From NCBI GenBank assembly GCA_963776345.1, contig CAVZMH010000024.1:64001-128000 (forward strand): a DNA stretch of 64,000 nucleotides, written 5' to 3'. The stretch is from an uncultured delta proteobacterium. GTDB lineage: Bacteria; Myxococcota; Myxococcia; Myxococcales; Myxococcaceae. The position numbers and the translations under genes are program-made. Positions 23,641 through 55,842 of the stretch are shown here, in pieces. The notes beneath the pieces were generated by a model that saw only the letters and a list, made by a program, of their open reading frames with translations, was not told the DNA's origin and did not search any database. Position 1 is the stretch's first letter, and each line of letters begins with the position of its first letter.

Positions 23641-23700
23641 CGGGATCAGCCTAGCCCGCCCAGTCGCGCCCCGGCCCGAGGCGGACCGAGGGGGGCAAGG

Positions 23701-23756
23701 AAGAAAGGAAGGTTTCCTGTCTAGTTCATGGAAATAGACAGGAGACTTCCTTTCTT
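23701..23756. repeat. Long AT-rich hairpin (terminator or REP-like palindrome)
   Basis: AAGAAAGGAAG pairs with CTTCCTTTCTT; TCCTGTCTA pairs with TAGACAGGA; lies between the HDAC stop and the permease start. Confidence 0.75.
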
Positions 23757-23785
23757 TCTCTCACCCCTCTCGGCGAGGACGCGCG

Positions 23786-24808: not shown

Positions 24809-24912
24809 GGGCAGGGACGCCAGAATCTAGCGCAGCGCGCCGGCCCCGGCCGGGGACGACGAACGAGCTGGCCGCCGGACCGGTCGGGGAGAGTACAGTC
24901 CGGGGCTCATCC

Positions 24913-26646: not shown

Positions 26647-26797
26647 GTCCCCGCCGCGCGCCGTATCGCAGGTGCTGTTCGTGCAACCCGACGGCAGGCT
26701 GGGCAACGTGCCGGCGCTCGGCCGGATGGCCATCGCGCTGACCCCGGTCCCGGGGGGAATGGCAACCGCCTCAAAAGAGGTTTAAGAGCGCGGAAGG

Positions 26798-27262
26798 ATG
26801 TTCAACCTTGGCGCCGGCGAGATCGCCGTCATCATGATCGTCGCCCTGCTGCTGCTCGGCCCGGACAAGCTGCCGGAGCTGGCACGCGGGATCGGCAAGT
26901 TCGTGCGCGAGTTCCGGCGGCAGACGGACGACGTGCGCGGCCTGGTCGAGCGCGAATTCTACAAGATGGACCAGGAGGTCTTCACCGAGGACCCCGCGCA
27001 GGCCAAGCGCATCGAGCCGCCCGCGCCGGCCGAGCCCGTGCCCCCGCCCGCCGTCGGTCCGGAGGGCGAGCTGACCCCGCCGGCGTACCCGTCCATCTTC
27101 CCGCCGCCCGAGGGAGTCGTCGCCGCGTCCTCGGCCGGCCCCGCGCCCCTGACGCCGGAGGAGCCGCCGGCGCCCGCCACGCCCGTGGAGCCGGCCACGG
27201 CGCCGCCCTCCGAGCCCGTCGCCGCCGCGCATCCGGAGGGCGACCCCGCGCAGCATGGCTGA
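26798..27262 (+). CDS. tatB: Twin-arginine translocase TatB
   Basis: MFNLGAGEIAVIMIVALLLLGPDKLPELARGIGK; Pro-rich tail; precedes tatC. Confidence 0.92.
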   Translation: MFNLGAGEIAVIMIVALLLLGPDKLPELARGIGKFVREFRRQTDDVRGLVEREFYKMDQEVFTEDPAQAKRIEPPAPAEPVPPPAVGPEGELTPPAYPSIFPPPEGVVAASSAGPAPLTPEEPPAPATPVEPATAPPSEPVAAAHPEGDPAQHG

Positions 27263-28484: not shown

Positions 28485-30271
28485 GCCCCGGTCGCTCCGC
28501 GGCGGTCGACGCGCGTCGGCCGGCGCCGGCTCGCCCAGGCGACGACGGCGAGGAGGGCGAGCGCCCCGCCCGGTCCGCTTCCGGTGCTGCTGCAGCCCGA
28601 GGCCCGGGTGGCGACCACGGTGGTGCTCGCGTCGCGGGCGGCCGGCGCGGGGCTTCCGCCCGAGATGTGGAACGCGACCGACACCTGTGACGGTGCGCCG
28701 CTCCTCAGGGCGTAGCTGGCGATGACCGTCTTCACCGCTCCTGCGGCGAGGTCCCCCAGGGCGCAGGGAAGGCCCCCCGAGCAGTCGAGCGACGTCGACT
28801 CGAGCACCAGCGACGGGTCGGCGCTGGCATCGAGCACCACCCCGGTGGCGGGGGCGCTCCCGCGGTTGACGACCTGCACGATGAACCGGGGGGCCCGGCC
28901 GCCGCTGAAGTCCGGTCCGAGCGTCGTCGCGCCGATGCTCAGCCCGGTGGGTGGAGACCAGCCCACGTCCTGCAGCGCTGCCGGGGTGAGGTCCAGGGTC
29001 CGCGGCAGGTGAGGGTTGATGGTGGGCTCCATCAAGAGGGGAGGCGAGGCGCTGGAGTCCCAGTGCCCCACGCTCGAGCCGTCGGAGAAGGCGCTGGGGG
29101 TGTAGAGCAGCACGTCCCCGGCGAGGTTCTCGCCGGCGCGCCGCCCGTCTCCGTCGACCAGCACCGTGGCGCCGCCGGCGTCGAGCACCGCTTCGAGCGT
29201 CGCGCCGTCCTCGTAGGAGATGCCCCACACCGGGATGGTGAGGTCGGACCCGGCGTCGCCGGTGTACGAGACCGGTCCGGCGCCGGGCGCACCGTGGCGG
29301 ACCAGGAGACCCACCGCGCCGGCGGCCTGCGCGTTCAGCGCGCGCTGGGAGACGAAGCAGACCAGTCCGCCGTCGGGCCGGAGCGTGCGCTCGGCGAGCA
29401 CCAGCGCGCCGGGGACCGGGACGATGGGGGCGCAGGCATCGACCGCGCTGCCGCCATCGCTGTCCTGGGCGAGCACCAGCGGGGCGGTGAGGGTGACGTG
29501 ACCCGGTCCGAAGCGGGCGCGGGCGACGGGGAACGCCCCTCCGTCCGGGAGCCGGAGCACCCCGTCCGTCTTGTCCAGGATCGAGTCCTTGGTGGCCCGC
29601 ACCGCGGGGCCGATCCAGCTCACGCCCAGGGGCCGCCGGATGGCCGCGTCGTAGTCGGCCGTGGAGAGCTGGGAGAGGAGGACACCGCTCGTGTCGTCGA
29701 GGGCCTGGTCGCGGAACGCGGTCGCCGACTTGATGAAGCCGAGCCCGTGCGCGAGCTCGTGCATGAACACCGAGGGCAGGTCGGTCATCCCGGTGGGCGC
29801 GACGTTGTCCAGGCCGGTGTACCAGTGGGTGACCGCGCAATCGGACTGGCCCACGCGGGAGTTGAAGCGTGCGTCGATCTCCTCCCGCCCCGGGTCGAGG
29901 TCGCGCCCGGCGCGCTCGTTCGCCAGCGCCGCCGGGAAGCGGCTGCTGTCGTAGAGCGCGGTCGGCCCGGTCGCTCCGAGCACCGCGGTGCCGCCCGAGC
30001 AGTCGAGGTCGGTGAACTCGGTGCGGATGGAGATGGGGACCTGGTTGCCGAGCGTGGCCGACCAGAGCGCGGCGGCATACTGGGAAGCGATCAGCCGCTG
30101 TTCGCCGATGCTCGTCCCCGGGTTGCCGCCCACCGGGACGGTGGCCGTGCGGTCGTTCAGGCCCTCGCCCGAGCCGTTGGCGTTCACGATGCGGATCTCG
30201 GCTCCGCCCAGGGCCGCCGGACAGACGAGCAGGCACGCGAGCCCCAGCGCCCGGACGCGGCGAGCGGTCAT
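28400..30271 (-). CDS. Second secreted PA-domain zinc metallopeptidase with MYXO-CTERM-like tail
   Basis: GLNDRTATVPVGGNPGTSIGEQRL, HELAHGLGF, CFVSQRALNAQAAGAVG, GSSVGHWD...LLMEP, SGCSST...LALLAVVAWASRRR; 3' end overlaps tatC by 85 bp. Confidence 0.88.
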   Translation of the reverse strand: MTARRVRALGLACLLVCPAALGGAEIRIVNANGSGEGLNDRTATVPVGGNPGTSIGEQRLIASQYAAALWSATLGNQVPISIRTEFTDLDCSGGTAVLGATGPTALYDSSRFPAALANERAGRDLDPGREEIDARFNSRVGQSDCAVTHWYTGLDNVAPTGMTDLPSVFMHELAHGLGFIKSATAFRDQALDDTSGVLLSQLSTADYDAAIRRPLGVSWIGPAVRATKDSILDKTDGVLRLPDGGAFPVARARFGPGHVTLTAPLVLAQDSDGGSAVDACAPIVPVPGALVLAERTLRPDGGLVCFVSQRALNAQAAGAVGLLVRHGAPGAGPVSYTGDAGSDLTIPVWGISYEDGATLEAVLDAGGATVLVDGDGRRAGENLAGDVLLYTPSAFSDGSSVGHWDSSASPPLLMEPTINPHLPRTLDLTPAALQDVGWSPPTGLSIGATTLGPDFSGGRAPRFIVQVVNRGSAPATGVVLDASADPSLVLESTSLDCSGGLPCALGDLAAGAVKTVIASYALRSGAPSQVSVAFHISGGSPAPAARDASTTVVATRASGCSSTGSGPGGALALLAVVAWASRRRPTRVDRRGATGAQVGVSAVSAEFRVRRRSMSQAATTPTS

Positions 30272-30606
30272 CGCTCCTCGTCGGGCGGCCGGACCAGCGC
30301 CTCCGCTCCGTCCTCGCTGTCCACGCACCCGACCCGGAGGGTGCCGTCGGGCGCGAGGTACCCGAGCACCACCGCGGTTGGCCCTGGCGTCACCGCGGCG
30401 CCGGACGAGTCGCGGGCGGTCGGCGTGGACAGGGCGTTCCGGGCGAGGTGGGGACGCACCAGCGCCCGGGCGGTGGACCTGGCCGAGGGGCCGGACTCCG
30501 GGGCGCCGGTTCCGGGGCCGCAGCCCAGGATGGCCGAGGTTCCGAGAGCCAGGAGGACCCAGCACGCGCGGGGACGGAGGATCGGCAAGCGGCTTCCCAG
30601 CATCAT
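30268..30606 (-). CDS. Small lipoprotein, paralog of 16283-16618, coupled to the second peptidase
   Basis: Lipobox ILGC; VVLGYLAPDGTLRVGCVDS motif; ATGA overlap with the peptidase start. Confidence 0.75.
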   Translation of the reverse strand: MMLGSRLPILRPRACWVLLALGTSAILGCGPGTGAPESGPSARSTARALVRPHLARNALSTPTARDSSGAAVTPGPTAVVLGYLAPDGTLRVGCVDSEDGAEALVRPPDEER

Positions 30607-30665
30607 CGGGGGCCCCCCTTCCCGGCAAGGCGTGGTATCGATGCTGAACAGAGGGTGACGGCGCG

Positions 30666-30875
30666 ATGACGACGGATGGCGCGAAGACCTCGCGGGAGCG
30701 GGCGAAGGAGATCGCCGAGCAGCGGCGGGCCGAGCGGCGGCAGCGGAAGCGCCACTGCGTCCTGTGCGGCGTGGAGGAAACGGACCGGACCCCCCTCGGC
30801 CCTCACCCGGACGGCGTCGGTCCGTCGTGCCGCGAGGAGTCGGCCTGCGTCGCCCGCAGGGCACGCTCGCTGTAG
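30666..30875 (+). CDS. Small basic protein with a four-Cys putative zinc-binding motif
   Basis: RERAKEIAEQRRAERRQRKRHCVLC...GPSCREESAC; GC-typical codon usage. Confidence 0.7.
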   Translation: MTTDGAKTSRERAKEIAEQRRAERRQRKRHCVLCGVEETDRTPLGPHPDGVGPSCREESACVARRARSL

Positions 30876-30927
30876 CTTTCCAATGCCGTTGCTCCCTCCG
30901 CGACATCGGAGGTAAGAAGAATCCCTC

Positions 30928-31140
30928 ATGGCCAGCGCCCCCTTCACCGGAGTGAAGGTGTTCTCGACGACGCTCGCCCGGGACCGGGAGACCATGGGTG
31001 ACAACATCACCAAGTGGCTCCGGGACAACCCCGGGGTCGAGGTGGTGGACCGCGTGGTGACCCAGAGCTCCGACAAGGAGTTCCACTGCCTGACCATCAC
31101 CCTGTTCTACCGGCACCGAGAGGCGGCTTCCCGGAGCTGA
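30928..31140 (+). CDS. Small conserved hypothetical protein (myxobacterial type)
   Basis: FTGVKVFSTTLARDRETMGDNITKWL...VVTQSSDKEFHCLTITLFY; strong coding codon bias. Confidence 0.8.
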   Translation: MASAPFTGVKVFSTTLARDRETMGDNITKWLRDNPGVEVVDRVVTQSSDKEFHCLTITLFYRHREAASRS

Positions 31141-31200
31141 TCGAACGCGGCGGGCGCGGGGGGGTTGCGCGCCGGCCCCGGGTCGGGGAGACCTCTGGGG

Positions 31201-31923
31201 ATGCGTCCCATGCGCCGGGGTTTCCGGCCCGTCCTTCCAGGTCTCCAGGGTGCCGCCGCGTGGCTCGCGGTCGCGCTCGTCGTCGGCTCGGTGGTCTTCG
31301 CGCTCACCCACGAGGGCGTGGGCGGCCTGCTTCTCCTCGTCCCCGGCGCGGTGCTCCGCGGGCTCCTCTGGCAGCCCCTCACCTACGGCTTCGTCGAGAA
31401 CTCGCCGATGGGCGTCATCTTCGGGGCGCTCATCGTCTGGCAGCTCGGCGGAGCGCTCGAGCAGACCTGGGGCTCCCGGCGGATGGCGCTGTTCGCGGTG
31501 GGCACCACGGTGCTCGCGGGCATCGGCACGGTCCTCCTCGCGCTCGCGGTTCCGGCGCTCCGCTCCCTCCCCTTCTCCGGCGGCTTCGTGATGGGCTCGG
31601 CGCTCTGGGTCGCGTACGGGCTCAGCTTCGGACGGCGGCAGACCAGCTTCTGGGGCCTGCCGGTGAGCGGGAACGTGTTCGCGCTGATCGGCGTGGGCTT
31701 CGTGTTCCTGAATGGGGCCTTCTCCAGCTTCTACCGGGTCCTCCCCGACGCCTTGGCGCTGCTGCTGACCTGGGCCTACTTGCGACTGGGTGGCCCGTCG
31801 GACTGGCTGCTCCGGCTCCAGGATTGGAGGCTGAAGCGGCAGCTCCGGTCCCGCAGCAAGCACCTGACGCTGGTCAGCCCTGACCGGAATACCCCGAGGG
31901 ATTCCGACCGTTTCATCCAGTGA
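31201..31923 (+). CDS. Rhomboid-like membrane protein (probably non-catalytic)
   Basis: LWQPLTYGF, QLGGALEQTWGSRR, about 6 TM; no GxSG or catalytic His evident. Confidence 0.75.
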   Translation: MRPMRRGFRPVLPGLQGAAAWLAVALVVGSVVFALTHEGVGGLLLLVPGAVLRGLLWQPLTYGFVENSPMGVIFGALIVWQLGGALEQTWGSRRMALFAVGTTVLAGIGTVLLALAVPALRSLPFSGGFVMGSALWVAYGLSFGRRQTSFWGLPVSGNVFALIGVGFVFLNGAFSSFYRVLPDALALLLTWAYLRLGGPSDWLLRLQDWRLKRQLRSRSKHLTLVSPDRNTPRDSDRFIQ

Positions 31924-32019
31924 GACGGTCTGTTTCACGACGGAATCGTTGAATCACGCGCGCGGGGGAGGCATCCAACGGCCCGCGTCTCAGCTACCCC
32001 TCGATTCCGGAGACACCCC

Positions 32020-32610
32020 ATGCGCTCGTTCGTTGCCCTTGCAGCCCTCGTTGCACTCCCCGCCGCCGCCTCGACCTGGGACGTGGACCCTGCCCACACC
32101 GAGAGCTCCTTCGTCGTGCGGCACATGATGGTGAGCAACGTCCGCGGTCAGTTCGGCAAGACCACCGGCGTCATCCAGCAGGACGACAAGGACCTCACCA
32201 AGAGCTCGGCGGAGATCACCATCGACGCGACCACCGTCGACACCCGCGAGCCCAAGCGCGACGCCCACCTCAGGTCGCCCGACTTCTTCGACGTCGAGAA
32301 GTTCCCGACCATCACCTTCAAGTCCACCAAGGTCACCAAGGGCGAGGGCAACAGCCTCAAGGTCTCGGGCGATCTCACCATCCACGGCGTGACCAAGCCG
32401 GTGGTGCTGAACCTCGAGTACACGCCCGAGACGCTGGCCGGCGGCAAGATGCGCCGCGGTCTCACCGCCACCACCAAGGTCAACCGCAAGGACTTCGGGC
32501 TGCTCTGGAACAAGTCCATCGAGGCCGGTGGGGTCATCGTCGGTGACGAGGTCACCATCAACGTCGAGATGGAGCTCATCAAGCAGGGCCCGCCCACCGC
32601 GTCGAAGTGA
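32020..32610 (+). CDS. YceI-family lipid/polyisoprenoid-binding protein
   Basis: Signal peptide; WDVDPAHT, VRGQF, RDAHLRSPDFFDVEKFPTITFKS, GDLTIHGVTKPV, NRKDFG. Confidence 0.95.
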   Translation: MRSFVALAALVALPAAASTWDVDPAHTESSFVVRHMMVSNVRGQFGKTTGVIQQDDKDLTKSSAEITIDATTVDTREPKRDAHLRSPDFFDVEKFPTITFKSTKVTKGEGNSLKVSGDLTIHGVTKPVVLNLEYTPETLAGGKMRRGLTATTKVNRKDFGLLWNKSIEAGGVIVGDEVTINVEMELIKQGPPTASK

Positions 32611-32620
32611 CGCGGGCGCC

Positions 32621-34840
32621 CTACGCGGCGTTGATCGACTGGACCCCCGCCCGGAAGACGTAGATCCGGGCGGTGTGCGTGCGGGTGTCGGCGGGCACGA
32701 GGAAGAAGCCCTGCTCGCCCGCGTCGACGTCCTCGGAGAAGCCGACGATCTGCCTGCCGTCGGCGAAGGCCACGCGGATTCGCCGCCCCGTCGAGGAGAG
32801 GGGCGCCGTCCCGGGCTCCTGCATGAAGAAGATGGCCTTCACCCGCTCGGCGGCGATCGCCTCGGGCGGCCGGCCGGGCTGGGCCAGGCGGATGACCGGG
32901 TCGAGCAGGTCCACGTCCTTCACCGTTCCGCGGCGGACCTGACCCTCGAGGGTGTGGAGCACCACGCGGTGCTCCCCCTCGACGAAGGTCGGGCTGAGGT
33001 ACGCGCCGCCGAAGACCTCCGCCCCCGTGGCCACGTCGGTCGCAGGGGGCGGGGTGGGCTCGGACGGGCCCGACTCGGCGTCGTCCATCACGTCGAGCGA
33101 CGCCGGGGTGAGCAGGAGGGACTTCCCCTTCGCGAACGGTCCGCTGCGGCCGAAGGCGGTGTTGAGCTGGGGCGGCTCGGGGCGCGCCGCGCTGAGCGCC
33201 GGGACGAGACGGCCGTCGTCGCCGAGGGCGAACGCCGCGGGGGGCGGCGGCGGTGGCACACCGGCCCCGGCTCCGGAGGCGCGTGACGCCATCACCGGGG
33301 CCGGAGGCGCGGCCGGCGCCCGCTGCGGCTCGGGCGCGGCAGGTGGCTCGGGCGCGGCCACCGGCGCGGCGACCGGTCGCGGCGGCGGTGGTCCGGGCGG
33401 TGGCCTGGGGACGGAGATCCGAGGCGCCGCCGGAGGGGGCGGGGGGGGCTCCGCCTCCAGCTCGGGCAGCGTCTCGAGCGCGGCCGGCTGGAAGGTCCCG
33501 GGCTCGGCCGCCAGCTCCGCCCCCGTCGCCTGGAGGTCCTCGGGGGCGAAGGTGGGCCCGTCGCCCTGGTCGTCGAACGCGAGCGCGCGTGGGTCCTGGG
33601 GCTGCTCGCCGACGAACTCGTAGAGCCCGGCGAGCGGCACCGGGTCCTCGGGCTGGCCGCCGAGCTCGGGCTCGGGGCCGCTCTCGCTCTCCAGCAGCAC
33701 CACGTCCGCCGAGGACAGCTCGATGGGGGCGGCGGCGTCGGCGAAGCCGGGCTCGCCCGAGTCGGCCACGTCGAGCGGCGTCGCTCCGAGATCCGCCGGG
33801 GCCAGCGCCTCCGGCGTGGCCTGGACCGCGCCCCAGGGGAGCTCCTCCGCGCCCGGAGGTGGCTCGGCCTCGGAGGCCTCGACGACGGCGTCGATGCGCT
33901 CGGCGAGGCTCGGGCGGTGGGGCGCGTCGGCGGCTCCGGTGTCCCCTCCAGCCGCGGCCTCGAGCGCGACGTCCGGAGGAACGGCTCCAGGCTCCACGGG
34001 AGGAAGGAGCTCGAGCGACGGTGCGGTGTCCTCGGGTGCCGCCAGGAGCTCGTCGGCGCCGGCCGGCGTCAGGGTCGCGCCCGGGTCGGGCAGCGCCTCG
34101 AGCGTGGGCTGGGAGGTGGGCTCGGCAGCGGCGAGCGGCTCGAGGTCCGGCAGCGTCGTCTGCAGGCCCGGGTCCGTCGGGGCCTCGGCGGCCGCCTCGA
34201 GCGTGGGCTGGGTGGTGGGCTCGGCAACGGCGGGCGGCTCGAGGTCCGGCAGCGTCGTCGTCCACTCGGCGGCGGCTTGGGTCTGCAGGCCCGGGTCCGT
34301 CGGGGGCTCGGCGGCCACCTCGCGCACGGGCTGGGTGGTGGGCTCGGCAGCGGCGGACTGCTCGAGCTCCGGCAGCGTCGTCGTCCACTCGGCGGCGGCC
34401 TGGGTCTTCAGGCCTGGGTCCATCGGGGGCTCGCCGGCCGCCTCGAGCGTGGGCTGGGTGGTGGGCTCCGCGACCGGCTGCCGGACGTCGGCTGGTGGAC
34501 TCACCGGCCCGGGAGCGGGCTCGACGCCGCGCGGTGGCGTGACCGGGGTCTCGAGGCGAGGAAGGGAGAAGACCGGCACGGGCGTCGGCCCTGCCGGTCG
34601 CGCGACCGCGGTCGCGCTGGCCGCCGTGACGGTGCGTGGGGCGTCGGCGGCTGGACCGGAGGGCGGAGCGACGGCGCCAGGCTGAGGGCCTGCAGGCCGG
34701 GCCTCCGCCGGTTCGGACGGCAAGCCCAGCCTCTCCCGCAACTCGGCGAGCCGGCCCCGCTCCTGCTCGGTGAGACCCTGCGTACTTCGCTTCTCGCTGA
34801 GGGAGCGCAGCTCGCGGATGGCCGCGCGCGTGTCGGACAT
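32621..34840 (-). CDS. Pro/Ala/Glu-rich protein with internal tandem repeats and a small globular C-terminal beta domain (DUF6982-like)
   Basis: Short N-terminal helix, long acidic low-complexity linker, C-terminal EGEHRVVLHTLEGQVRRG...RIRVAFADGRQIVG...GFFLVPAD. Confidence 0.75.
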   Translation of the reverse strand: MSDTRAAIRELRSLSEKRSTQGLTEQERGRLAELRERLGLPSEPAEARPAGPQPGAVAPPSGPAADAPRTVTAASATAVARPAGPTPVPVFSLPRLETPVTPPRGVEPAPGPVSPPADVRQPVAEPTTQPTLEAAGEPPMDPGLKTQAAAEWTTTLPELEQSAAAEPTTQPVREVAAEPPTDPGLQTQAAAEWTTTLPDLEPPAVAEPTTQPTLEAAAEAPTDPGLQTTLPDLEPLAAAEPTSQPTLEALPDPGATLTPAGADELLAAPEDTAPSLELLPPVEPGAVPPDVALEAAAGGDTGAADAPHRPSLAERIDAVVEASEAEPPPGAEELPWGAVQATPEALAPADLGATPLDVADSGEPGFADAAAPIELSSADVVLLESESGPEPELGGQPEDPVPLAGLYEFVGEQPQDPRALAFDDQGDGPTFAPEDLQATGAELAAEPGTFQPAALETLPELEAEPPPPPPAAPRISVPRPPPGPPPPRPVAAPVAAPEPPAAPEPQRAPAAPPAPVMASRASGAGAGVPPPPPPAAFALGDDGRLVPALSAARPEPPQLNTAFGRSGPFAKGKSLLLTPASLDVMDDAESGPSEPTPPPATDVATGAEVFGGAYLSPTFVEGEHRVVLHTLEGQVRRGTVKDVDLLDPVIRLAQPGRPPEAIAAERVKAIFFMQEPGTAPLSSTGRRIRVAFADGRQIVGFSEDVDAGEQGFFLVPADTRTHTARIYVFRAGVQSINAA
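34090..34475 (-). repeat. In-frame 123-bp (41-aa) coding tandem repeat, plus one 99-bp variant
   Basis: GGGCTGGG(T/A)GGTGGGCTC recurs at 34106, 34205, 34328 and 34451; peptide AEPTTQPTLEAA..P.DPGL.TQAAAEWTTTLP.LE. Confidence 0.9.
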
Positions 34841-35036
34841 CGTTCGAGGGGAGTGTACCGGGCAACCCGGGGGCGACGAAAGGAATGGGCAGGCGCGCGA
34901 ACGCACGGGTTGAAGCCGTGACGCAACCCTCCCACCTGGGCGACCGTCACCTACCTGCGCCTTGTGTCGAGCCCTGCGGTGCGCCAGAAACAGGTCGTCG
35001 GCCTAACGGCGCCGTTTCCCCACATCGGGAGTACCC

Positions 35037-37092
35037 GTGCCCCAGCAAGGAATCGAGAAGCTCGCCATCGACACCATCCGCACCCTGTCGATGGATGCGG
35101 TGCAGAAGGCGAACTCCGGGCATCCCGGCGCGCCGATGGCCCTCGCCCCGGTGGCATACGCCCTCTGGCAGAACGTCCTCCGCTACGACCCGGCGAACCC
35201 GACCTGGCCGAACCGCGATCGCTTCGTGCTCTCCAACGGGCACGCCTCGATGCTCCTCTACTCGGTGCTCCACCTGACCGGCGTGCGCCAGCTGGACCGG
35301 GAGGGACGGGTGCTGGACGCGCCGGCGGTCTCGCTCGACGACCTCAAGTCCTTCCGCCAGATGGACAGCCGCACCCCGGGTCACCCCGAGTACCGCATCA
35401 CCAGCGGCGTCGAGTGCACCACCGGGCCGCTGGGCCAGGGCGCGGCGAACTCGGTGGGCATGGCCATCGCCTCGCGGTGGCTCGGGCGCCCGGTACAACA
35501 GGCCCGGGCTCACGCTGTTCGACCACGACGTCTACGCCATCGTGGGCGACGGCGGCATGATGGAGGGCATCACCTCCGAGGCCGCCTCCCTCGCCGGGCA
35601 CCTCGCGCTGCCCAACCTCTGCTGGCTCTACGACAGCAACCACATCTCGCTCGACGGGAAGCTCTCGCTCTCCTTCAGCGAGGACGTGCCGAAGCGCTTC
35701 GAGGCGTACGGCTGGGCGGTCACCCACGTCACCGACGCCAACGACCTCGGCCAGCTGGGAAAGGCGCTCGCGTTCTTCAAGGGCCAGGGCAGGCCCACGC
35801 TCATCGTCGTCGACTCGCACATCGGCTACGGCAGCCCCAAGAAGCAGGACACCAGCGCCGCGCACGGCGAGCCGCTCGGCGAGGAGCAGGTCCGCGCGGC
35901 GAAGAAGAGCTACGGCTGGCCCGAGGACGCGCAGTTCCTGGTCCCCGAGGGCGTCCGCGAGCACTTCGCCCAGGGCATCGGCGCGCGGGGACGCAAGCTC
36001 CGGCAGGACTGGGAGGCGCTCCGCGAGCGGCATCGGAAGGAGTTCCCCGAGCTCGCGGCGGAGCTGGATCGGATCGACCGGCTCGAGCTCCCGCCGGGCT
36101 GGGACAGCGAGCTGCCGGTCTTCCCCGCCGACCCCAAGGGGATGGCCACCCGCGAGTCGTCGGGGCAGGTGCTGAACGCGCTGGCGAAGAAGATCCCCTG
36201 GTTGCTCGGGGGCGCCGCCGACCTGAGCGGCTCGACCAAGACCACCATCAAGGGTGAGCCGAACCTCGCATCCGGCGAGCCCGGAGGCCGGAACATCTAC
36301 TTCGGCGTCCGCGAGCACGCGATGGGCGCCATCGTGAACGGGATGGTGCTGAGCAAGCTGCGGGCGTTCGGGAGCACGTTCCTCACCTTCGTGGACTACA
36401 TGCGCGCGCCGGTCCGGCTCGCGTCGCTGATGGAGATCCCGGTGTTCCACGTGATGACCCACGACTCCATTGGGCTCGGCGAGGACGGGCCGACGCACCA
36501 GCCGGTGGAGCAGATCGCGTCGCTCCGGGCGATGCCCGGGCTCCTGGTGCTCCGCCCGGGGGACGCGAACGAGGTCACCGAGTGTTACCGGGTGGTGATG
36601 GAGAGCAGGCACCACCCGGCGATCCTGGTCTTCAGCCGACAGGCGCTCCCCACGTTCGACCGGACGAAGGTCAGTCCCGCGACGGGAGTGCGAAAGGGCG
36701 CCTACGTGCTGGCCGACGCCGAGGGTGGCAAGCCCGAGGTGCTGCTGATGGCCACCGGGAGCGAGGTGCGGCTCATCGTCGAGGCCCAGGAGAAGCTCAA
36801 GGCCGAGGGCATCCGCGCCCGGGCGATCAGCATGCCGTCGTGGGAGCTGTTCGAGCAGCAGTCGCCCGAGTACCGGGAGTCGGTGCTCCCCTCAGCGGTC
36901 ACCGCCCGCGTCGCCGTGGAGCAGGCGGCGACGTTCGGCTGGGCGACCTACGTGGGGCGGAGCGGGAAGATCCTGGGGATGAGGAGCTTCGGGGCGTCGG
37001 CGCCGCTCAAGGATCTGCTCCAGCACTTCGGGTTCACCACCGAGCACGTGGTGGCGGCGGCGAAGGAGCAGCTCGGGAAGAAGGGACGTTGA
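35037..37092 (+). CDS. tkt: Transketolase, apparent frameshift near 35488
   Basis: [31 protein letters not shown], then [32 protein letters not shown] in ORF 35542..37092. Confidence 0.96.
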
Positions 37093-37096
37093 GGCC

Positions 37097-37558
37097 ATGC
37101 GAATCGCGCTCGCCGCCGACCACGCCGGCTACGCCTTGAAGCAGCACCTCCTGGAGGTCGTCCGCGCCCTCGGGCACGAGGTGACGGATCTGGGCACGGA
37201 CTCCGAGGCCCCGGTCGATTATCCGGACTTCGCCGAGAAGCTGGGGATGGTCGTCCGCGAGGGCCGGGCCGACCGCGGGATTCTCCTGTGCGGGAGCGGG
37301 GTGGGCGCCTCGGTGGCGGCGAACAAGATCCCCGGGGTGCGCGCGGGCCTGTGCCACGACGGGTACTCCGCCCACCAGGGGGTGGAGCACGACGACGTGA
37401 ACGTCCTGGTGCTCGGGGCGCGGATCATCGGTCCGGCCCTGGCGGACGATCTGGTGACGACGTTCCTGGCCGCCCGTTACACCCACGAGGAACGTCACGA
37501 GCGGCGGCTGGGCAAGGTCAAGGCGCTGGAACGGCGCTGGTCGAAGGAGCAGCCATGA
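37097..37558 (+). CDS. rpiB: Ribose-5-phosphate isomerase B
   Basis: ADHAG, DYPDFA, CGSGVG, AANKIPGVRA, RHERR. Confidence 0.97.
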   Translation: MRIALAADHAGYALKQHLLEVVRALGHEVTDLGTDSEAPVDYPDFAEKLGMVVREGRADRGILLCGSGVGASVAANKIPGVRAGLCHDGYSAHQGVEHDDVNVLVLGARIIGPALADDLVTTFLAARYTHEERHERRLGKVKALERRWSKEQP

Positions 37559-38688
37559 ATCCACTCAAAGCGCTCGGAGAGCTGGGCCAGAGCATCTGGC
37601 TGGACTACATGCAGCGGAGTCTCGTCACCACGGGGAAGCTGCAGCGACTCATCGAGGACGATGGCCTCAAGGGCCTGACGTCGAACCCCACCATCTTCCA
37701 GAAGGCGGTCGAGGGCAGTCAGGACTACGACGACCTGTTCCAGGAGTGGGCTCCCCGCGGCGCGTCGGCCGGCGAGGTGTTCGAGGCGCTGGCGATCCGG
37801 GACATCGGTGATGCGGCGCGGATCTTCCGGCCGGTCTGGGAGAAGACCAGACACCGCGATGGCTACTGCTCGATCGAGGTCACACCCACCCTGGCCCATG
37901 ACACCCAAGGGACCGTGGTCGAGGCGCGCCGGCTCTGGAAGAAGCTCGGCGTTCCCAACGTGATGGTCAAGATCCCGGGGACGGTGGAAGGTGTTCCGGC
38001 GATCGAGCAGTGCGTCTCCGATGGTCTCAACATCAACGTGACCTTGCTGTTCAGCCAGGACGCCTACGTCGCCGTTGCCGAGGCGTACATCCGGGGACTG
38101 GAGAAGCGAGTCGCCCGCGGCGAGGACGTCTCGGAGAGCGCTTCGGTGGCGAGCTTCTTCGTGAGCCGGATCGACACCCTGGTGGAGAAGACCATCGCCA
38201 GCCGCGTGAAGGCCGAGCCCACCCCTCGGCAGAAGGCCCTCTTCGACGAGATCGCGGGCAAGGTGGCCATCGCCAACGCCAAGCAGGCCTATCAGAAGTA
38301 CCAGAAGCTGTTCTCGGGTTCGCGCTGGCAGGCGCTCGCCGACAGGGGAGCCAAGACTCAGCGGGTCCTGTGGGCCAGCACCGGCACCAAGAATCCCAGG
38401 TACTCCGACGTCCTCTACATCGACGAGCTGATCGGGCCGGACACGGTGAACACGATCCCCCCGGCCACGCTCGACGCCTTCCGCGACCACGGCAAGGCCC
38501 GGCGGACCCTGGACGAGGGGCTCGAGCAGGCGGATGCGGTGATGCGCAAGCTGGAGCAGTCGGGAATCTCGATGAAGGCGGTCACCGACCAGCTGGTCGA
38601 CGAGGGCGTGAAGAGCTTCGAGGACAGCTTCCGCCAGCTGATCTCCGCGGTGGACGGCCGACTGAAGAGCGAGGGAGGGCGGAAGTGA
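37555..38688 (+). CDS. tal: Transaldolase (long, family 2)
   Basis: GQSIWLD, GLTSNPTIF, NVMVKIP, NINVTLLFS, SVASFFVSRID, QRVLWASTGTK. Confidence 0.96.
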   Translation: MNPLKALGELGQSIWLDYMQRSLVTTGKLQRLIEDDGLKGLTSNPTIFQKAVEGSQDYDDLFQEWAPRGASAGEVFEALAIRDIGDAARIFRPVWEKTRHRDGYCSIEVTPTLAHDTQGTVVEARRLWKKLGVPNVMVKIPGTVEGVPAIEQCVSDGLNINVTLLFSQDAYVAVAEAYIRGLEKRVARGEDVSESASVASFFVSRIDTLVEKTIASRVKAEPTPRQKALFDEIAGKVAIANAKQAYQKYQKLFSGSRWQALADRGAKTQRVLWASTGTKNPRYSDVLYIDELIGPDTVNTIPPATLDAFRDHGKARRTLDEGLEQADAVMRKLEQSGISMKAVTDQLVDEGVKSFEDSFRQLISAVDGRLKSEGGRK

Positions 38689-40391
38689 ACCGCATCTCCC
38701 TGCATCTTCCGGCCGAGCTCGACTCGGACGTGAAGCGGACCCTCGCCGACTGGGACCAGGGCAAGAAGATGCAGCGCCTCTGGGACCGCGACGCCTCGCT
38801 GTGGACCGGTCAGGACGAGGCGAAGTGGCTCGGGTGGCTGGACGTCGTGGACGCGAAGACGCCGGTGAGCCCCGAGCTGGGGAGCTTCCTCCAGTCGATC
38901 GAGCTGGACCGGTTCGGCCAGGTCCTGCTGCTCGGGATGGGGGGCAGCTCGCTCTGCCCCGAGGTGATGGCCCAGACGTACGGGCCGGTGAAGGGGAAGC
39001 CCGAGCTCTTGGTGCTCGACTCCACCGACCCGGTCCAGGTGCAGTCGTTCGCCAGGCGCGTCGACCCGGTGCGGACGCTGTTCATCGTCTCCAGCAAGAG
39101 CGGGAGCACGCTCGAGCCGAACATCTTCTTCCAGTTCTTCTGGGCGAAGACGGTGGAGGCGGTGGGGCAGGAGAAGGCCGGGCGGCACTTCGTGGCCGTC
39201 ACCGACCCGGGCTCGAAGATGGAGCAGGTGGCGAAGGAGCACCGCTTCCGCGCCATCTTCCCGGGGAGGCCGAGCATCGGCGGGCGCTACTCGGCGCTGT
39301 CCAACTTCGGCCTGGTGCCGGCGGGCGCGATGGGCGTGGACCTCCCGCGGTTCCTCGGGAGCACGCTGACCATGGTGCAGGCCTGCGCCGGGAGCGTCGT
39401 CGCCTCGAAGAATCCGGGCGGTATCCTCGGCGCGGTGCTGGGGACGCTGGGCAAGGCGGGGCGGAACAAGGTGACGCTGGTCACCAGCCCGGGCATCGGC
39501 GACGTGGGCGCCTGGCTGGAGCAGCTGCTGGCCGAGTCGACCGGCAAGCAGGGCAAGGGGCTCATCCCGGTGGACCGCGAGGCGCTGGGCGCGCCCGAGC
39601 AGTACGGGCAAGACCGGCTCTTCGCCTACCTGCGGCTCGAGTCGGCGCCGGACACTGGCCAGGACCGGGGCGTGGAGGCGCTGGCCAGGGCCGGGCACCC
39701 GGTGGTGCGCATCGCCGTGGAGGACCCCTACGCGCTGGGGCAGGAGCTCTTCCGGTGGGAGATCGCGACCGCCGTGGCCGGGGCGGTCCTGGGCATCAAC
39801 CCCTTCGACCAGCCGGACGTCGAGGCGAGCAAGGTCGAGACCCGGAAGCTGACCGAGGCGTACGAGAAGACCGGGTCGCTGCCGGACGAGCGCCCGTTCC
39901 TCGAGGACGGGCCGGTGGCCCTGTTCGCGGACCCGGCCAACGTCCAGGCGCTCCAGGGCGGCAAGACGCTGGCCGACGTGCTCCGGACGCACCTCGGGCG
40001 GCTCGGGGCGGGCGACTACCTGGGCCTGCTCGCGTACATCCCGATGACCAGGGAGAACGAGGCGGTGCTGCAGGCGGGGCGCATGCGGGTGCGCGACGCG
40101 CGGAAGGTCGCCACCTGCCTCGGCTTCGGGCCGCGGTTCCTCCACTCCACCGGCCAGGCCTACAAGGGCGGGCCGAACTCGGGCGTGTTCCTGCAGGTCA
40201 CCTGCGACGATCCGGTGCAGCTCCCCGTCCCCGGGCAGAAGTACACCTTCGGGGTGGTGAAGGCGGCGCAGGCGCGGGGTGACTTCGAGGTGCTCGCGGC
40301 GCGGAAGCGCAGGGCGCTCCGGGTGCACCTGCGCGGGCCGCTCGATGCCGCGCTCCGGAAGCTGCGCGAGACCATCGACCGGGCGGTCTGA
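38685..40391 (+). CDS. pgi: Glucose-6-phosphate isomerase (type usually fused to transaldolase)
   Basis: [62 protein letters not shown]. Confidence 0.93.
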
Positions 40392-40394
40392 GAG

Positions 40395-40422
40395 GGCAGT
40401 CCCCAACAGGCAGTCGGCAGTC
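40395..40422 (+). repeat. Short heptamer repeat tract (GGCAGTC)
   Basis: GGCAGTC at 40395, 40409 and 40416, in 7-bp register, in the pgi-gnd spacer. Confidence 0.6.
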
Positions 40423-40435
40423 AGGAGCGACAGCG

Positions 40436-41407
40436 ATGCAGATCGGGATGATCGGCCTGGGTCGGATGGGCGGGAACATGGTCCGCCGGCTGATGAAGGG
40501 CGGGCACGCGTGCGTGGTTCACGACCGCGGCGCCGACGTGGTCGCGGCCTTCGCCAGGGAGGGCGCCACCCCGGCGAAGACGCTGGAGGAGCTGGTGTCG
40601 AAGCTCCAGAAGCCACGCGCGGTGTGGATCATGGTCCCCTCCGGCGGGCCCACCGAGGACACGGTGCAGTCGCTGGCCAGGCTGCTCGACGCAGGCGACA
40701 CGATCATCGACGGCGGGAACAGCTTCTTCAAGGACGACGTCCGCCGGGCGAAGGAGGTCGCGAAGAAGGGCATCCACTACGTCGACGCCGGCACCAGCGG
40801 CGGGGTGTGGGGCGCCGAGCGCGGCTACTGCCTGATGGTGGGCGGCCCGAAGGAGGCGGTGCAGCGCATCGAGCCGGTGCTCCGGACCCTCGCCCCGGGC
40901 AAGGGCGACATCCCGGCGACACCGGGGCGCGACGGGAAGAGCACCGCGGAGCTGGGGTACCTGCACTGCGGCCCCCCGGGCTCCGGGCACTTCGTGAAGA
41001 TGGTGCACAACGGGATCGAGTACGGCCTGATGCAGGCCTACGCCGAGGGCTTCGACATCTTCAAGAATGCGGGCTCGGAGCAGCTGCCCGAGGAGATCCG
41101 CTACGACCTGAACATCGCCGACATCGCCGAGCTGTGGCGGCGGGGCAGCGTGGTCTCCAGCTGGCTGCTCGACCTGACCAGCATCGCGCTCGCCCAGGAC
41201 CCGACGCTGGAGAGCTACTCGGGGTTCGTCCAGGACTCGGGCGAGGGCCGGTGGACGGTGCAGGCGGCGGTCGACGAGGCGGTGCCGGCCGAGGTGCTGA
41301 CCGCGGCGCTCTACACTCGCTTCCGCTCGCGGCAGCAGCACACCTTCGCCGAGAAGCTGCTCTCGGCGATGCGCAAGCAGTTCGGCGGCCACGTGGAGCC
41401 CAAGTAA
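40436..41407 (+). CDS. gnd: 6-phosphogluconate dehydrogenase (decarboxylating, short YqeC type)
   Basis: [48 protein letters not shown]. Confidence 0.97.
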
Positions 41408-51654: not shown

Positions 51655-53937
51655 ACGCAGGCGCCACCACCACCTGGCGGCTGGTGAGCCTCTCTCCGCT
51701 TCCGGCCTGGGCGCTCGGGCTCCTCACCGTGCTGGTCCTGGCGGGCGTGGTGCTGGCGGTGCTCGGGCTCCGGCGCGAGCCGTCGGCGCTCCGCCGGAGG
51801 GTGCTGCTCGTGCTCCGGCTGCTCGCCGGGGCGATGGCGCTGTTCTTCCTGCTCGAGCCGGGGCTGCGACAGCTCGCCCAGGTCCGGGTGAAGAACCGCC
51901 TCGCGGTGCTGGTGGACCGGAGCGCGAGCATGGGCTTCCCGGTGCACCCGGACGGGCAGACCCGGGCGGCGGCGGCAGCCGAGGCGCTGGACCGCTTCGC
52001 CCCGGGGCTCGAGGCGCTGCGCGATCGGTACCAGGTGGAGGTGCTGGGCTTCTCGCCCGAGCTCGCGCCGGTGTCGTCCGAGGCGCTGCGGACCCCGGGC
52101 AGCGGGAACCGGACCGACCTCATGGCGGCGCTCCGGGCCCTGAAGTCCACCGACACCGGCGGGAGCCGGAAGCTCGCCGGCGCGATTCTCCTCTCGGACG
52201 GAGCGGACAACGCCGAGCTCCAGGCCGGGCTCCAGACGCGCCAGTCCGAGGAGCTGGGCGCGCTCGGCTTCCCCGTGTCCACGGTCCGCGTCGGAGAGCC
52301 GGCGCTGGTGGATCTGGCGGTCGAGGCCGTGAAGGTGGACGACTTCGCCTTCGTCCGGAACGCGGTGACGGTGGACCTCGAGCTGCACGCCCGGGGGCTC
52401 AAGGGGCGCGACGTCCCGGTGGTGCTCCAGCGCGAGGGGCTCACCGTGGGGACGCGCACGGTGCACCTGGACCAGGACGACCAGCGCACGCCGGTGTCCT
52501 TCACCTTCACCCCGGACCAGACCGGGCGCTTCGTCTACACGGTCGGCGCGCCGGTGTTCCCCGGCGAGGCGGTGGTGGAGAACAACACCCGCTCGTTCGT
52601 GCTCAAGGTGATCCGCGACCGGGTGCGGGTGCTGCTGGTGGTGGGGCGCCCCAGCTGGGACGAGCGGTTCCTCCGGGGGCTCCTCAAGCAGGACCCCAAC
52701 GTGGACCTGGTGTCGTTCTACATCCTCCGGACCTCAGCGGACGACACGCAGACCCGGAACCCCGAGCGAGAGCTGTCGCTGATCCCCTTCCCGATGGAGG
52801 AGATCTTCGACACCAAGCTCCACACCTTCGACGTGGTGGTCTTCCAGAACTTCGGCTACGCCGAGCCGGCGCTGTCCATCGCCAGCTACGAGCGGAACCT
52901 GGAGCAGTACGTGGCGGGCGGCGGCGCGCTCCTGGTCATCGGGGGGGACCACGCCTTCGGCGAGGGGCGGGCGGCGTACCCGGTGCTGGACCGCGCGCTC
53001 CCGGTGGACCCGAGCGGAACGCCGGCGGCGGTCGAGCCGTTCAAGATCAGGCTCACCCCGGACGGGCTGCGGCATCCGGTGATGCGGGTGCAGACGACCG
53101 AGGGCGGCACCCAGGGCTCGTGGGACGAGCTCCCGCCCGCGAGCGGCATGAACATGGTGCGGGTGAAGCAGGGGGCCACGGTGCTGCTCGCGCATCCGAC
53201 GCTCAAGGTGGACGGGCAGCCAGCGCCGGTGCTTGCGCTCTGGGACCACGGCCGTGGCCGGGCCATGGCGATGATGACCGACGACAGCTGGACCTGGGCC
53301 TTCACCGCCCGCCGCACCGGGGAGCAGAATCGCCACTACGACCGGTTCTGGAGCAACGCTCTGCGCTGGCTGGTGCGCGACCCCGACCTGACCTCGCTGC
53401 AGATCGCCGCGGATCCGCCGACGGTCGAGCCCGGGCACCCGGTGGGCGCCGTGGTGACCGCCCGGCAGCCGGACTACCAGCCGGCGGGCTCCGCGGAGGT
53501 GCGGGTGGACCTCTTCTCGCTCGCCGACCGGCGGGTGCTGCAGACCCGCACCGCCGCCGCCGGACCGGACGGTGTGGGCCGGGTGGTGTTCGAGCCGGTC
53601 CCTCCGGGCGCGTACAAGCTCCGGGCGACCGCACGCCTGGATGGGCGCGACCTCGGGGAGGCGGAGGACGCGGTGGCGGTGCGCTCGGTGGGTCCGGAGA
53701 TGGCGGACGCGTCGGTGCGGACCGAGCTGCTCGCCGACATCGCCCGGGCCACCGGCGGCCGAGGCTACCAGCTGCCGATGGGCGGATTCCCGGATGCCCC
53801 GCTGCTGGATTCCCCCGCTCATCGAGGTGGGACGGAGCAAGGACGCGCCACTCTGGGACCGCTGGGGCTGGCTGGTGGCGCTGGCGGTGCTGCTCGGCGG
53901 CGAGTGGTTCCTTCGCCGCCGCTTCGGCTACATCTAG
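51651..53937 (+). CDS. Membrane protein with vWA-like, Ig-like and glutamine-amidotransferase-like (DUF1355-type) domains; frameshift near 53811
   Basis: Two N-terminal TMs, LVDRSASM, LLSDGADN, GGALLVIGG, GRGRAMA, FWSNALRWL; C-terminal PLWDRW...EWFLRRRFG in ORF 53572..53937. Confidence 0.85.
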
Positions 53938-54339
53938 GTCAGGGCGGCCGCAGCCGAGGTCCGGGTCAGGGTGTCGTCAGGCGGGCTGCAGTCGGCGAGG
54001 TCAGGGCGGCCGCAGTCAGCTAGGTCAGGGCGGCCGCAGCCGAGGTCCGGGTCAGGGTGTCGTCAGGCGGGCTGCAGTCGGCGAGGTCAGGGCGGCCGCA
54101 GTCAGCTAGGTCAGGGCGGCCGCAGCCGAGGTCCGCGTCAGGGTGTCGTCAGGCGGGCTGCAGTCGGCGAGGTCAGGGCGGCCGCAGCTCGGTCAGGGCG
54201 GCCGCAGCCGAGGTCCGCGTCAGGGTGTCGTCAGGCGGGCTGCAGTCGGCGAGGTCAGGGCGGCCGCAGCCGAGGTCCGGGTCGGGGTGTCGTCAGGCGG
54301 GCTGCAGTCGGCGAGGTCAGGGCGGCCGCAGTCAGCTAG
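53934..54339. repeat. Higher-order tandem repeat array (62-bp and 24-bp units), CTAG-bounded, between convergent stop codons
   Basis: GTCAGGGCGGCCGCAG occurs exactly at 53938, 54000, 54024, 54086, 54110, 54172, 54192, 54254 and 54316. Confidence 0.95.
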
Positions 54340-54710
54340 TTCGGCTCGTGGTCGAGCCAGCTGGCCTGTGCCGGGAGCCGGTGCGGGCCGTGGACCCCGC
54401 GGCAGGTGCGGCACCAGGACTGGGCCACCCGCCGGCCGCGCAGCGTGCGGACGCCGAACTCCCGCAGCGTGTCGCCCACGCGCTGGCACCGGGGGCAGCG
54501 GCTCCAGCGCGGGAGTTCGGTGGCCTCGCGGGCCTTGCGGCCGTGCTCCACGACCAGGGCCAGGGCCTTGGCGAAGCCGATCTGCCACCGCGGATCGACG
54601 TGGACCGGCGTTCCGGGTCGCGGCCCGGGGCGCACGAGGTCCACACCGCCGAGCAGCGACTGCTGTTCGAGAAGCGGAGCTGGACGGACGGTGCGTTCCA
54701 TGGGCGACAC
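54336..54710 (-). CDS. Small zinc-finger protein (CxxC...QSWCxxC)
   Basis: AGAGG RBS, GTG at 54710 (or ATG at 54701); RCPRCQRVGDTLREFGVRTLRGRRVAQSWCRTCR. Confidence 0.7.
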   Translation of the reverse strand: MSPMERTVRPAPLLEQQSLLGGVDLVRPGPRPGTPVHVDPRWQIGFAKALALVVEHGRKAREATELPRWSRCPRCQRVGDTLREFGVRTLRGRRVAQSWCRTCRGVHGPHRLPAQASWLDHEPN

Positions 54711-54724
54711 ACTACCTCTTGGGA

Positions 54725-54741
54725 CTGACAGCCCGTTCAGT
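54725..54741. promoter_or_regulatory. Candidate myxobacterial LexA (SOS) box
   Basis: CTGACAGCCCGTTCAGT matches the M. xanthus consensus CTRHAMRYBYGTTCAGS (as recalled) at 15/17; 15 bp upstream of the zinc-finger gene. Confidence 0.55.
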
Positions 54742-54933
54742 GGTCCCGGGCCGGGAGCCGGATCAGGCAGCCCGACGGGGTCGAGGAGCAGAAGCACCAA
54801 TCTTCCTCGATAGATGCAACGGTGCTGCGCCAGCCTGGGCCTGGGTGTCCACGTCGGCGGACTCGTCTACCGTTCGCGTGTCCGGCGAATCGCCGGACAG
54901 GGCCGGCGCATCGCCGGCTCGAGGGGAGGAACG

Positions 54934-55842
54934 ATGCGCGTTGGATTTCGTGGCGGTGTGCTGTGCGCAGCGATGGCGCTGTCGGCCTGCGGCGCGGGCG
55001 TCGAGCAAGGAAACACGGCGGGTGAGGATCTGCTGCCCACCGGCAAGGGCGCGGTGACGCTGCAGCAGATCGGAGAGGCATCAGCGGCCGCGCGGGTGCG
55101 CAGCAACGGGATCACCTACCACGGCGGACCGGTGATCACCGGCACCACCAACGTCTATTACATCTGGTACGGCAACTGGAGCGGCAACACCGCGACGACC
55201 ATCCTCACCGATTTCGCCAGCAGCATCGGCGGCTCGCCGTACTTCAACATCAACACCACCTATTACAACGGCTCCAACGTGCACGTGAGCAACTCGGTGC
55301 ACTACGCCGGCTCCACGACCGACAGCTACTCGCAGGGCACGTCGCTCTCCGACGCGCAGATCCAGACCGTCGTCTCCAGCGCCATCAGCTCCGGCCGGCT
55401 GCCCAAGGACACCAACGCGGTCTACTTCGTCCTCACCTCGAGCGACGTGACCGCCAGCTCGGGCTTCTGCACCCAGTACTGCGGCTGGCACACCCACGGG
55501 ACCATCTCCGGGTCCGACATCAAGTACTCGTTCGTGGGGAACCCCGACCGCTGTCCGTCGGCATGCGAGGCCCAGACCACCGGCCCGAACGGGAACGCCG
55601 GCGCGGACGGGATGGCGTCGATCGTCGCCCACGAGCTCGAGGAGGCGGTGACCGATCCCGACCTCAACGCCTGGTACGACAACCGGGGCTACGAGAACGC
55701 CGACAAGTGCGCCTGGACGTTCGGGACCGAGTCCACCGCGTCCAACGGGGCCAAGTACAACGTGACCCTCGGCAGCCGTCAGTACCTCATCCAGCGGAAC
55801 TGGGTGAACGCCAGCGGCGGCTACTGCTCGATGAGCTACTAG
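54934..55842 (+). CDS. Lipoprotein with a Phi-1/EXORDIUM-like domain
   Basis: GGAGG RBS, lipobox LSAC; ITYHGGPV, YYIWYGNW, VYFVLTSSDV, FCTQYCGWH, NGNAGADGM, AHELEEAVTDP, ENADKC, YLIQRNW. Confidence 0.85.
   Translation: MRVGFRGGVLCAAMALSACGAGVEQGNTAGEDLLPTGKGAVTLQQIGEASAAARVRSNGITYHGGPVITGTTNVYYIWYGNWSGNTATTILTDFASSIGGSPYFNINTTYYNGSNVHVSNSVHYAGSTTDSYSQGTSLSDAQIQTVVSSAISSGRLPKDTNAVYFVLTSSDVTASSGFCTQYCGWHTHGTISGSDIKYSFVGNPDRCPSACEAQTTGPNGNAGADGMASIVAHELEEAVTDPDLNAWYDNRGYENADKCAWTFGTESTASNGAKYNVTLGSRQYLIQRNWVNASGGYCSMSY

Follow-up and report, generated by a model that had tools for sequence, protein, structure and literature searches.

The window analysed here (G000:C24:64001-128000) is a stretch of DNA of 64,000 nucleotides from a genome of 72% GC (G000) whose relatives are Myxococcaceae. 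A small gene on its minus strand, with the stop codon at 54338-54336, lies between a tandem repeat array and a region with overlapping promoter and operator elements. The features of the gene and its surroundings are as follows.

54336..54701, minus strand: ORF of 121 aa (P0001) with an ATG start at 54701, likely leaderless; M. xanthus orthologue MXAN_7092 / Q1CWL8
54709..54714, minus strand: TAGTGT, predicted -10 hexamer at spacing 10 from TGTCAG, with the ATG 7 nt further on
54725..54730, minus strand: TGTCAG, predicted PafBC -26 element, one half of the LexA-like box
54725-54741, strand unspecified: LexA-like operator CTGACAGCCCGTTCAGT, 15/17 to the M. xanthus consensus, overlapping the -26 element
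53934..54340, strand unspecified: tandem array of 27+35+24 nt sub-units, a dispersed intergenic repeat adjoining the gene

The ORF is real: 43 homologues were found, the cysteines are invariant and, judged from the aligned codons, the gene is under purifying selection, with 26-36 synonymous versus 5-8 non-synonymous codon changes in each of five orthologues (110 codons). A preliminary description of this DNA had given a length of about 124 aa, which counts from a GTG at 54710-54708, three codons before the ATG; the ORF exists, but its product is likely of 121 aa from ATG 54701. The GTG overlaps the predicted -10 hexamer (54714-54709), and both GTG and TTG were discarded as starts of the ORF, their positions being within the predicted -10 or upstream of it. 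The M. xanthus DK1622 orthologue (ABF86836.1, Q1CWL8, MXAN_7092) is among the proteins detected in the proteome data of Jung et al. 2025 (PMC12288472, Table S1) and is therefore translated.

Of 151 genomes sampled from the class, 73 have a full-length copy of the gene (profile, E below 1e-15), one of these carriers being unpublished (G206), and all 73 fall among the 95 genomes of the window's family, the Myxococcaceae. The flanking genes differ between genera. Searches of Pfam, NCBIfam and PDB sequences assigned the protein to no family, a full-text literature search by locus tag returned no mention of MXAN_7092, and in the ESM Atlas P0001 matched unnamed clusters only, while the N-terminal part of P0084 matched nothing. 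AcrIF23 (E 0.039) was considered as a relative and rejected, its row being without the cysteines. The gene thus described likely encodes a new, uncharacterised, family-wide small protein of the DNA-damage regulon. A second, finger-only paralogue of 128 aa, unnamed, is present at G000:C13:208414 (minus strand); it has a TGTCAG upstream but without TA at spacing 10, and weak matches like it occur in 93/94 genomes of the window's family and in 33/33 of family f7.

Alignment of the upstream regions of the homologues showed TGTCAG, 10 nt, TA (or GA) and then the start codon. Of 80 homologous loci scored by script, 73 have TGTCAG-N10-[TG]A before the gene; inspection by eye adds three myxobacterial loci with broken ORFs, which brings the count to 76/76 myxobacterial homologues, and the four loci of the 80 without the pattern are non-myxobacterial finger-only matches (Nitrosopumilus, Obscuribacter). 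The start codon lies 7 nt after the -10 in 62/73 loci, and the final T of the -10 is missing at many myxobacterial sites. No -35 element was recognisable in the window promoter. PafBC is a damage-sensing activator that has been characterised until now in actinobacteria. In mycobacteria the PafBC motif is tGTCgg(N10)tA(N3)T, which comprises the -26 element and the -10 (Muller 2021, PMC8635444). The signal kept by all myxobacterial homologues would accordingly appear, from its letters and spacing, to be a PafBC-type -26/-10 promoter and not the LexA box, and the gene's promoter is likely of the DNA-damage type under PafBC-type control. Neither the text supplements of PMC8844925 nor the raw reads of RNA run X24, which cover the gene, gave a start site for MXAN_7092.

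The exact pattern TGTCAG-N10-TA occurs at five sites in the source genome, and the genes downstream of them are recA, ssb, recJ, the one for a ligase-associated exonuclease, and the gene described here. One of these sites is also in the window, at 7991-8012 (plus strand), upstream of the exonuclease gene, whose TIGR04122 assignment (ligase-associated DNA damage response) falls below the cut-off. When the pattern was relaxed to [TC]GTC[AG]G-N10-TA, spacing 10 gave 25 promoter-located sites, and the other spacings from 5 to 16 gave 4-12. Ten of the 25 precede repair or replication genes (rmuC, recN, recJ, xseA, polX, a pcrA/uvrD helicase, ssb, fpg, the ligase-associated exonuclease and dnaE), compared with 1 of 33 control genes (Fisher p 0.0005), where 23 of the 25 downstream genes were scanned, this gene and its divergent Phi_1-family neighbour being left out, and the controls were 33 distinct genes at spacings 8, 9, 11, 12 and 13 with repeats dropped, imuA being the sole repair gene among them. 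Near variants of the pattern precede dnaB and mutS; these two and recA were counted apart from the 10/25, because the crude gene caller had missed recA and mis-started some genes. Since its TGTCAG-N10-TA pattern is common to the DNA-repair genes of the genome, the gene is likely to be PafBC-activated. XseA (G000:C15:436897-438699) carries, besides the -26/-10 promoter pattern, an N-terminal extension with a clamp-like QGDLF.

The source genome also has a tandem pair of WYL genes, the pafB/pafC pair, at C22:144924 and 145904. Its PafB matches the solved PafB (7p5x) with E 2.6e-20, and both of the arginines that contact GTC, R46 and R50 (PMC8635444), are retained in it. The likeness to the mycobacterial PafBC regulon thus comprises a -26 hexamer with GTC placed 10 nt before the -10, tandem HTH-WYL genes with R46/R50, targets that include recA, ssb, a uvrD-type helicase and other repair genes, and a LexA box on some of the promoters. 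The two differ in that the host belongs to the Myxococcota and not to the Actinobacteria, the system here being a predicted one, in that the myxobacterial hexamer is mostly TGTCAG and the last T of the -10 is often missing, and in that pafBC is under LexA control in M. xanthus.

In M. xanthus AM003, 44 exact TGTCAG-N10-TA sites were counted versus 30 for the reversed pattern. Among the 33 downstream ORFs scanned were ligA, smc (315 nt away), recN, recA, sbcD, ssb and nth, together with genes of the gyrA, DUF4130 and XRE types; most of the other ORFs are unnamed or unrelated, and most of the 44 sites do not stand before recognisable repair genes. Matched by name, ligA, smc, recN, recA2, sbcD, ssb, gyrA and endonuclease III are listed as UV-induced in Table S1 of Sheng 2021 (PMC9705874). 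The XRE gene clusters with Q1DEM2 and adjoins a HEAT-like gene, and we infer that it is ddiA (MXAN_0633), because the neighbouring identifier Q1DEM1 is MXAN_0634. Its candidate promoter is the following.

G041:C221:627-644, minus strand: TGTCAG-N10-TAATCT, promoter of the presumed ddiA, with the published start site placed on AM003 DNA

The ddiA start codon has been placed at +94 (Jung 2025, PMC12288472). On AM003 DNA, TGTCAG then falls at -29 to -24 and TAATCT at -13 to -8 of the published start site, which lies 7 nt after this -10, so placed that both elements are within one base of the PafBC positions. In the account of Jung 2025 (PMC12288472) the inducer of ddiA is unknown, LexA- and DdiA-independent damage regulators are yet to be identified, and MXAN_1359/1360, the PafB/PafC homologues, are left aside. 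The PafBC idea is not wholly new, since Sheng 2021 (PMC9705874) had named pafBC and stated a PafBC-binding sequence for 24/51 genes; neither a motif nor a test was found in that paper, of which the remaining supplement and Fig. 4A may hold more. The literature search found no paper that defines the motif in myxobacteria, although subscription papers, preprint supplements and figures may hold more, and none that shows PafBC binding or activity in any myxobacterium.

The promoter pattern is the stronger result, compared with the protein, since it directs attention to PafBC as the myxobacterial damage regulator that has been missing. It names a candidate regulator, its sites, that of ddiA included, and the bases to mutate, and therefore the regulator question raised by Jung becomes directly testable in the model organism. 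TGTCAG-N10-TA could instead be read by another myxobacterial factor or mark replication-linked housekeeping promoters, with the gene outside the damage response. The pattern does stand before dnaE, dnaB-type and unrelated genes, and MXAN_7092 is present without damage and is not induced in the wild type; but sequence and spacing equal those of the PafBC motif, the reading residues of PafB are kept, and many pattern-bearing genes are, by name, UV- or mitomycin-induced in published tables. This other assignment is consequently considered very unlikely, and PafBC-type control is preferred.

The LexA-like box had been reported as a 15/17 match to the M. xanthus LexA consensus CTRHAMRYBYGTTCAGS, as quoted in PMC9705874, and the same match count was obtained here for CTGACAGCCCGTTCAGT. 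The distance of 15 bp upstream given for it has to be adjusted: the box lies 14 nt from the GTG at 54710-54708 and 23 nt from the likely ATG at 54701. By itself a 15/17 match is at chance level, with 1.38 expected per shuffled window and at least one in 72/100 shuffles. It becomes meaningful because the box is kept in 10/10 same-genus orthologues, though the DNA further upstream differs, and is common to lexA (0 mismatches), imuA (1) and recA (2) in the source genome, which has one lexA. The expected conservation in homologues holds in full within the genus but in part beyond it. A box within 3 mismatches is found in 45/73 family loci, which are kin and come in some cases from the same genomes, versus 63/2000 random stretches, and is absent from 28/73. 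Relative to TGTCAG the box stands at -11 (16 loci), -16 (7) or -62/-63 (20). In gel shifts with M. xanthus boxes, LexA did not bind that of recN and bound that of pafBC weakly (Sheng 2021, PMC9705874); the recN box has two mismatches, as has that of the window, and the mismatch at position 5 is common to both. LexA probably binds the box of the window. Two related unnamed ORFs of ~135 aa (G000:C12:43175 and C16:894144) have near-perfect palindromic LexA-like boxes 2-3 nt before them.

In the preliminary description the gene was a plain LexA-repressed SOS gene with a clamp-binding product. The presence of the box in all ten same-genus orthologues, its fixed offsets in 43/73 loci and a match to the consensus as good as that of recA's own box are in agreement with this model. 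As in the M. xanthus LexA regulon, a box, here of 15/17, overlies the promoter, and lexA, recA and imuA of the source genome are preceded by the same kind of box. Against it, no -35 is recognisable, the -26/-10 pattern is universal and the box is not, and a half-site of the window box doubles as the -26 hexamer, in which it differs from that regulon. A further difference is that MXAN_7092 was not derepressed in the proteome of an M. xanthus lexA deletion (-2.39 log2, not significant; PMC12288472), unlike recA2, recN and PafBC in the same deletion. This result leaves the window's clade unsettled, because the M. xanthus box is at -62 and not over the -26 element. Altogether the plain SOS model is judged improbable.

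The predicted induction by DNA damage was not borne out for the orthologue, since mitomycin C changed MXAN_7092 by +0.46 and +0.55 log2 in the wild type, neither being significant (PMC12288472). Of the earlier designation as an uncharacterised DNA-damage-inducible factor there remains a real, uncharacterised and translated protein with a damage-type promoter, but one whose orthologue is not raised by mitomycin in the wild type. The rise of MXAN_7092 was confined to the mitomycin-treated ddiA deletion (PMC12288472) and amounted there to +2.14 and +1.58 log2, significant against the treated wild type. RecX, which is repressed by DdiA, shows the same pattern in that study. There may be a loop in which PafBC turns on ddiA and this gene while DdiA holds the gene down; alternatively, the gene is simply not damage-induced. 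In a public RNA run (X1) the contig depth was 23,000-41,000 over the M. xanthus orthologue versus 432 upstream, and three runs were without this. A depth 10- to 100-fold above that of the upstream contig spans L044:3056-3730, the orthologue and just beyond, and X1 showed no peak over imuA, imuB or dnaE2. The run was left out of the argument because contig depth cannot rank genes.

The protein comprises an N-terminal hairpin, a conserved helix, a C4 zinc finger and a short C-terminal segment.

54633..54671, minus strand: predicted beta-hairpin, residues 11-23, with QQSLL (54651-54665) at the turn
54522..54593, minus strand: conserved predicted helix, residues 37-60, with GFAxALALVVEHG (conservation and model)
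54402..54497, minus strand: arginine-rich C4 zinc finger C69-C72...C97-C100, pLDDT 87-93 over residues 61-100
54354..54368, minus strand: C-terminal QASWL, second clamp-motif-like segment; homologues have QxDLL, GWLF or QLxL there

The model of P0001 (pLDDT 69.6) has strands at 11-14, 20-23 and 33-35, the helix at 37-60 and a confident finger; a divergent member folds as three strands plus helix with pLDDT 85. With the two models Foldseek gave no match at E up to 0.001, and the best VIA-align Z (6.2) was to PH domains, a common arrangement, with the finger barely covered. Of the finger as first described, CPRC-x9-FGVR and QSWCRTC are present, but the second gap is x8 and not x7. The finger by itself occurs widely, with 867 representatives at E up to 0.001, and is found stand-alone, repeated or fused. 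Its reported likeness to phage endonuclease-associated modules extends to the same CxxC...FG...QSWCxxC pattern, though the PHROG matches are weak: phrog_34160 and phrog_7682 were matched by 41/42 and 38/42 members at E up to 0.1 (best 1.5e-6). The pattern is common to this protein and to those C4 fingers (phrog_34160 and phrog_7682, weakly the endonuclease VII and HNH families), whereas the present gene is chromosomal, single-copy and without a nuclease domain. From its basic surface and the phage and fusion contexts, we consider DNA binding by the finger a probable function.

The QQSLL that had been compared with the beta-clamp motif is present at residues 13-17. The clamp consensus is QL[S/D]LF or QxxLF (PMC12309361); QQSLL is without the usual F, having L at position 5, where several homologues have F. 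The motif was expected to be conserved, and indeed QQSLL is kept and clamp-like motifs, by an author-defined pattern that allows L or W at position 5 and QxxLxL, occur in 30/44 helix-plus-finger representatives, versus 1.3 in shuffles, 3/76 finger-only proteins and 3.7% of proteome windows. Most of the matches represent one homologous position, and about ten are elsewhere (QPTLF, QLSLPL, QLDLL). In the source genome DnaE (QSSLF) and XseA (QGDLF) have clamp-like motifs as well. Known clamp clients (PMC12309361) share with the protein Q at position 1, S at 3, L at 4 and the location of motifs at the termini; L in place of F in the window's clade, the predicted hairpin and the lack of a catalytic domain set it apart from them.

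The conservation runs beyond the pentapeptide to GG-x-D-[VL], and short WGR proteins have a QPDLFGG hairpin to which QQSLLGG-x-D-L aligns at a profile probability of 77% for the window's clade and 94-95% with divergent members. For the latter, E was 4e-8 to 2e-7. Column-shuffled controls scored at most 15 versus 41; the alignment covers 19-23 columns, the hairpin alone, and the WGR subset was picked after the likeness had been noticed. When most myxobacterial WGR domains were taken for the profile comparison, the probability was 4-9%. Pfam WGR (PF05406) matched neither P0001 nor 34 relatives, the W-G-R signature being eroded. WGR structures were found among the fold matches at Z 4.5-4.9 (2ra8, Z 4.9, rmsd 3.1 over 52; 2eoc, Z 4.8, rmsd 3.3 over 57); they ranked below PH domains and stood together with many unrelated structures. 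The protein resembles the short bacterial WGR proteins (PF05406, QPDLFGG type; P0412-P0429) in the QxxLFGG-x-D-V hairpin, in the three strands and helix of the model and, in several, in a C-terminal QLxL; it differs in that the first strands and the W-G-R signature are missing and in its fusion to a C4 finger. In the short WGR proteins P0412-P0424 the QPDLF hairpin and the C-terminal QLxL are both clamp-motif-like.

The conserved QQSLL sits in a predicted hairpin that matches short WGR domains; the protein may bind the beta clamp, which we put at somewhat less than an even chance. No paper linking WGR to DnaN or to the clamp was found, although subscription papers, preprint supplements and figures may hold more. 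QQSLLGG could then be the leftover of a WGR hairpin, and the product a damage-regulon protein off the clamp that acts as a two-part nucleic-acid binder of eroded WGR and finger. The hairpin alignment with its low-scoring shuffles, the three strands and helix of the divergent member with WGR structures among its matches, and the conservation past the pentapeptide all speak for this. The few columns aligned, the late choice of the subset and the rank of the WGR matches below PH domains speak against it, as does the fact that, where the hairpin has been lost, QPTLF, QLSLPL or QLDLL is still present at one or other terminus, as would be expected of a short docking motif. A WGR remnant without clamp contact is rated rather unlikely. 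Moreover, the two readings are not exclusive, as the hairpin turn could itself be the docking motif.

As a whole, the locus is best explained by a PafBC-activated, LexA-dampened small helper that grips DNA and is maybe docked at the clamp, an explanation to which we give slightly more than even credence. By inference from Mycobacterium, PafBC would on damage bind single-stranded DNA, insert between sigma region 4 and the DNA and read the -26 hexamer, which would let the housekeeping RNA polymerase use the -10 and yield a leaderless transcript that begins at the ATG or right next to it. As LexA would cover the -26 hexamer in the window, expression may require an AND gate of cleaved LexA and active PafBC, and in M. 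xanthus DdiA possibly dampens the gene as well. The weakest step concerns the product: it would be a non-enzymatic helper whose basic C4 finger likely grips DNA, whose N-terminal three-strand and helix part may be an eroded WGR-like domain, and whose QxxL[LF] turn, with the second motif at the C-terminus, could tether it to DnaN at stalled forks. MXAN_7092 would thereby be added, as an unnamed family-wide small protein in which a clamp motif is to be weighed against a WGR remnant, to the candidate damage regulon. The most far-reaching version combines a full PafBC sigma-adaptation regulon in myxobacteria, in which PafBC would be the damage regulator still sought that needs neither LexA nor DdiA and would also induce ddiA, with a PafBC/LexA/DdiA-gated, eroded-WGR, clamp-docking zinc-finger factor that controls clamp access at stalled forks; in all its parts together it is speculative and rather doubtful.

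The repeat array fills the gap between two convergent genes. As the preliminary description had stated, the 3' end of the gene runs into it, the stop codon overlapping the last unit, and a protein that binds the array or is functionally tied to it might be imagined from this overlap. However, relatives of the array are present at 15 other loci of the genome, in a lineage-specific repeat family with modular units, and the proposed conservation of the array downstream of the gene was not found, related copies lying beside 3/10 orthologues of the same genus and being absent from the more distant loci. The array is regarded as a dispersed intergenic repeat outside the gene's system, the chance of a link between the two being practically negligible, and the same applies to its binding by the protein. 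On its other side, a surplus base at about 53811 seems to shift the frame of the convergent vWA/GATase-like gene (from 51651). The conserved C-terminus of that gene, which ends at 53937, lies in a different frame, while orthologues read through, and the frameshift is probably a sequencing error. Upstream of the zinc-finger gene, the divergent neighbour at 54814-55842 (plus strand) encodes a Phi_1/EXORDIUM-like putative lipoprotein that is missing there in orthologous loci, and a weaker CGTCGG-N10-TA site lies at 54852.
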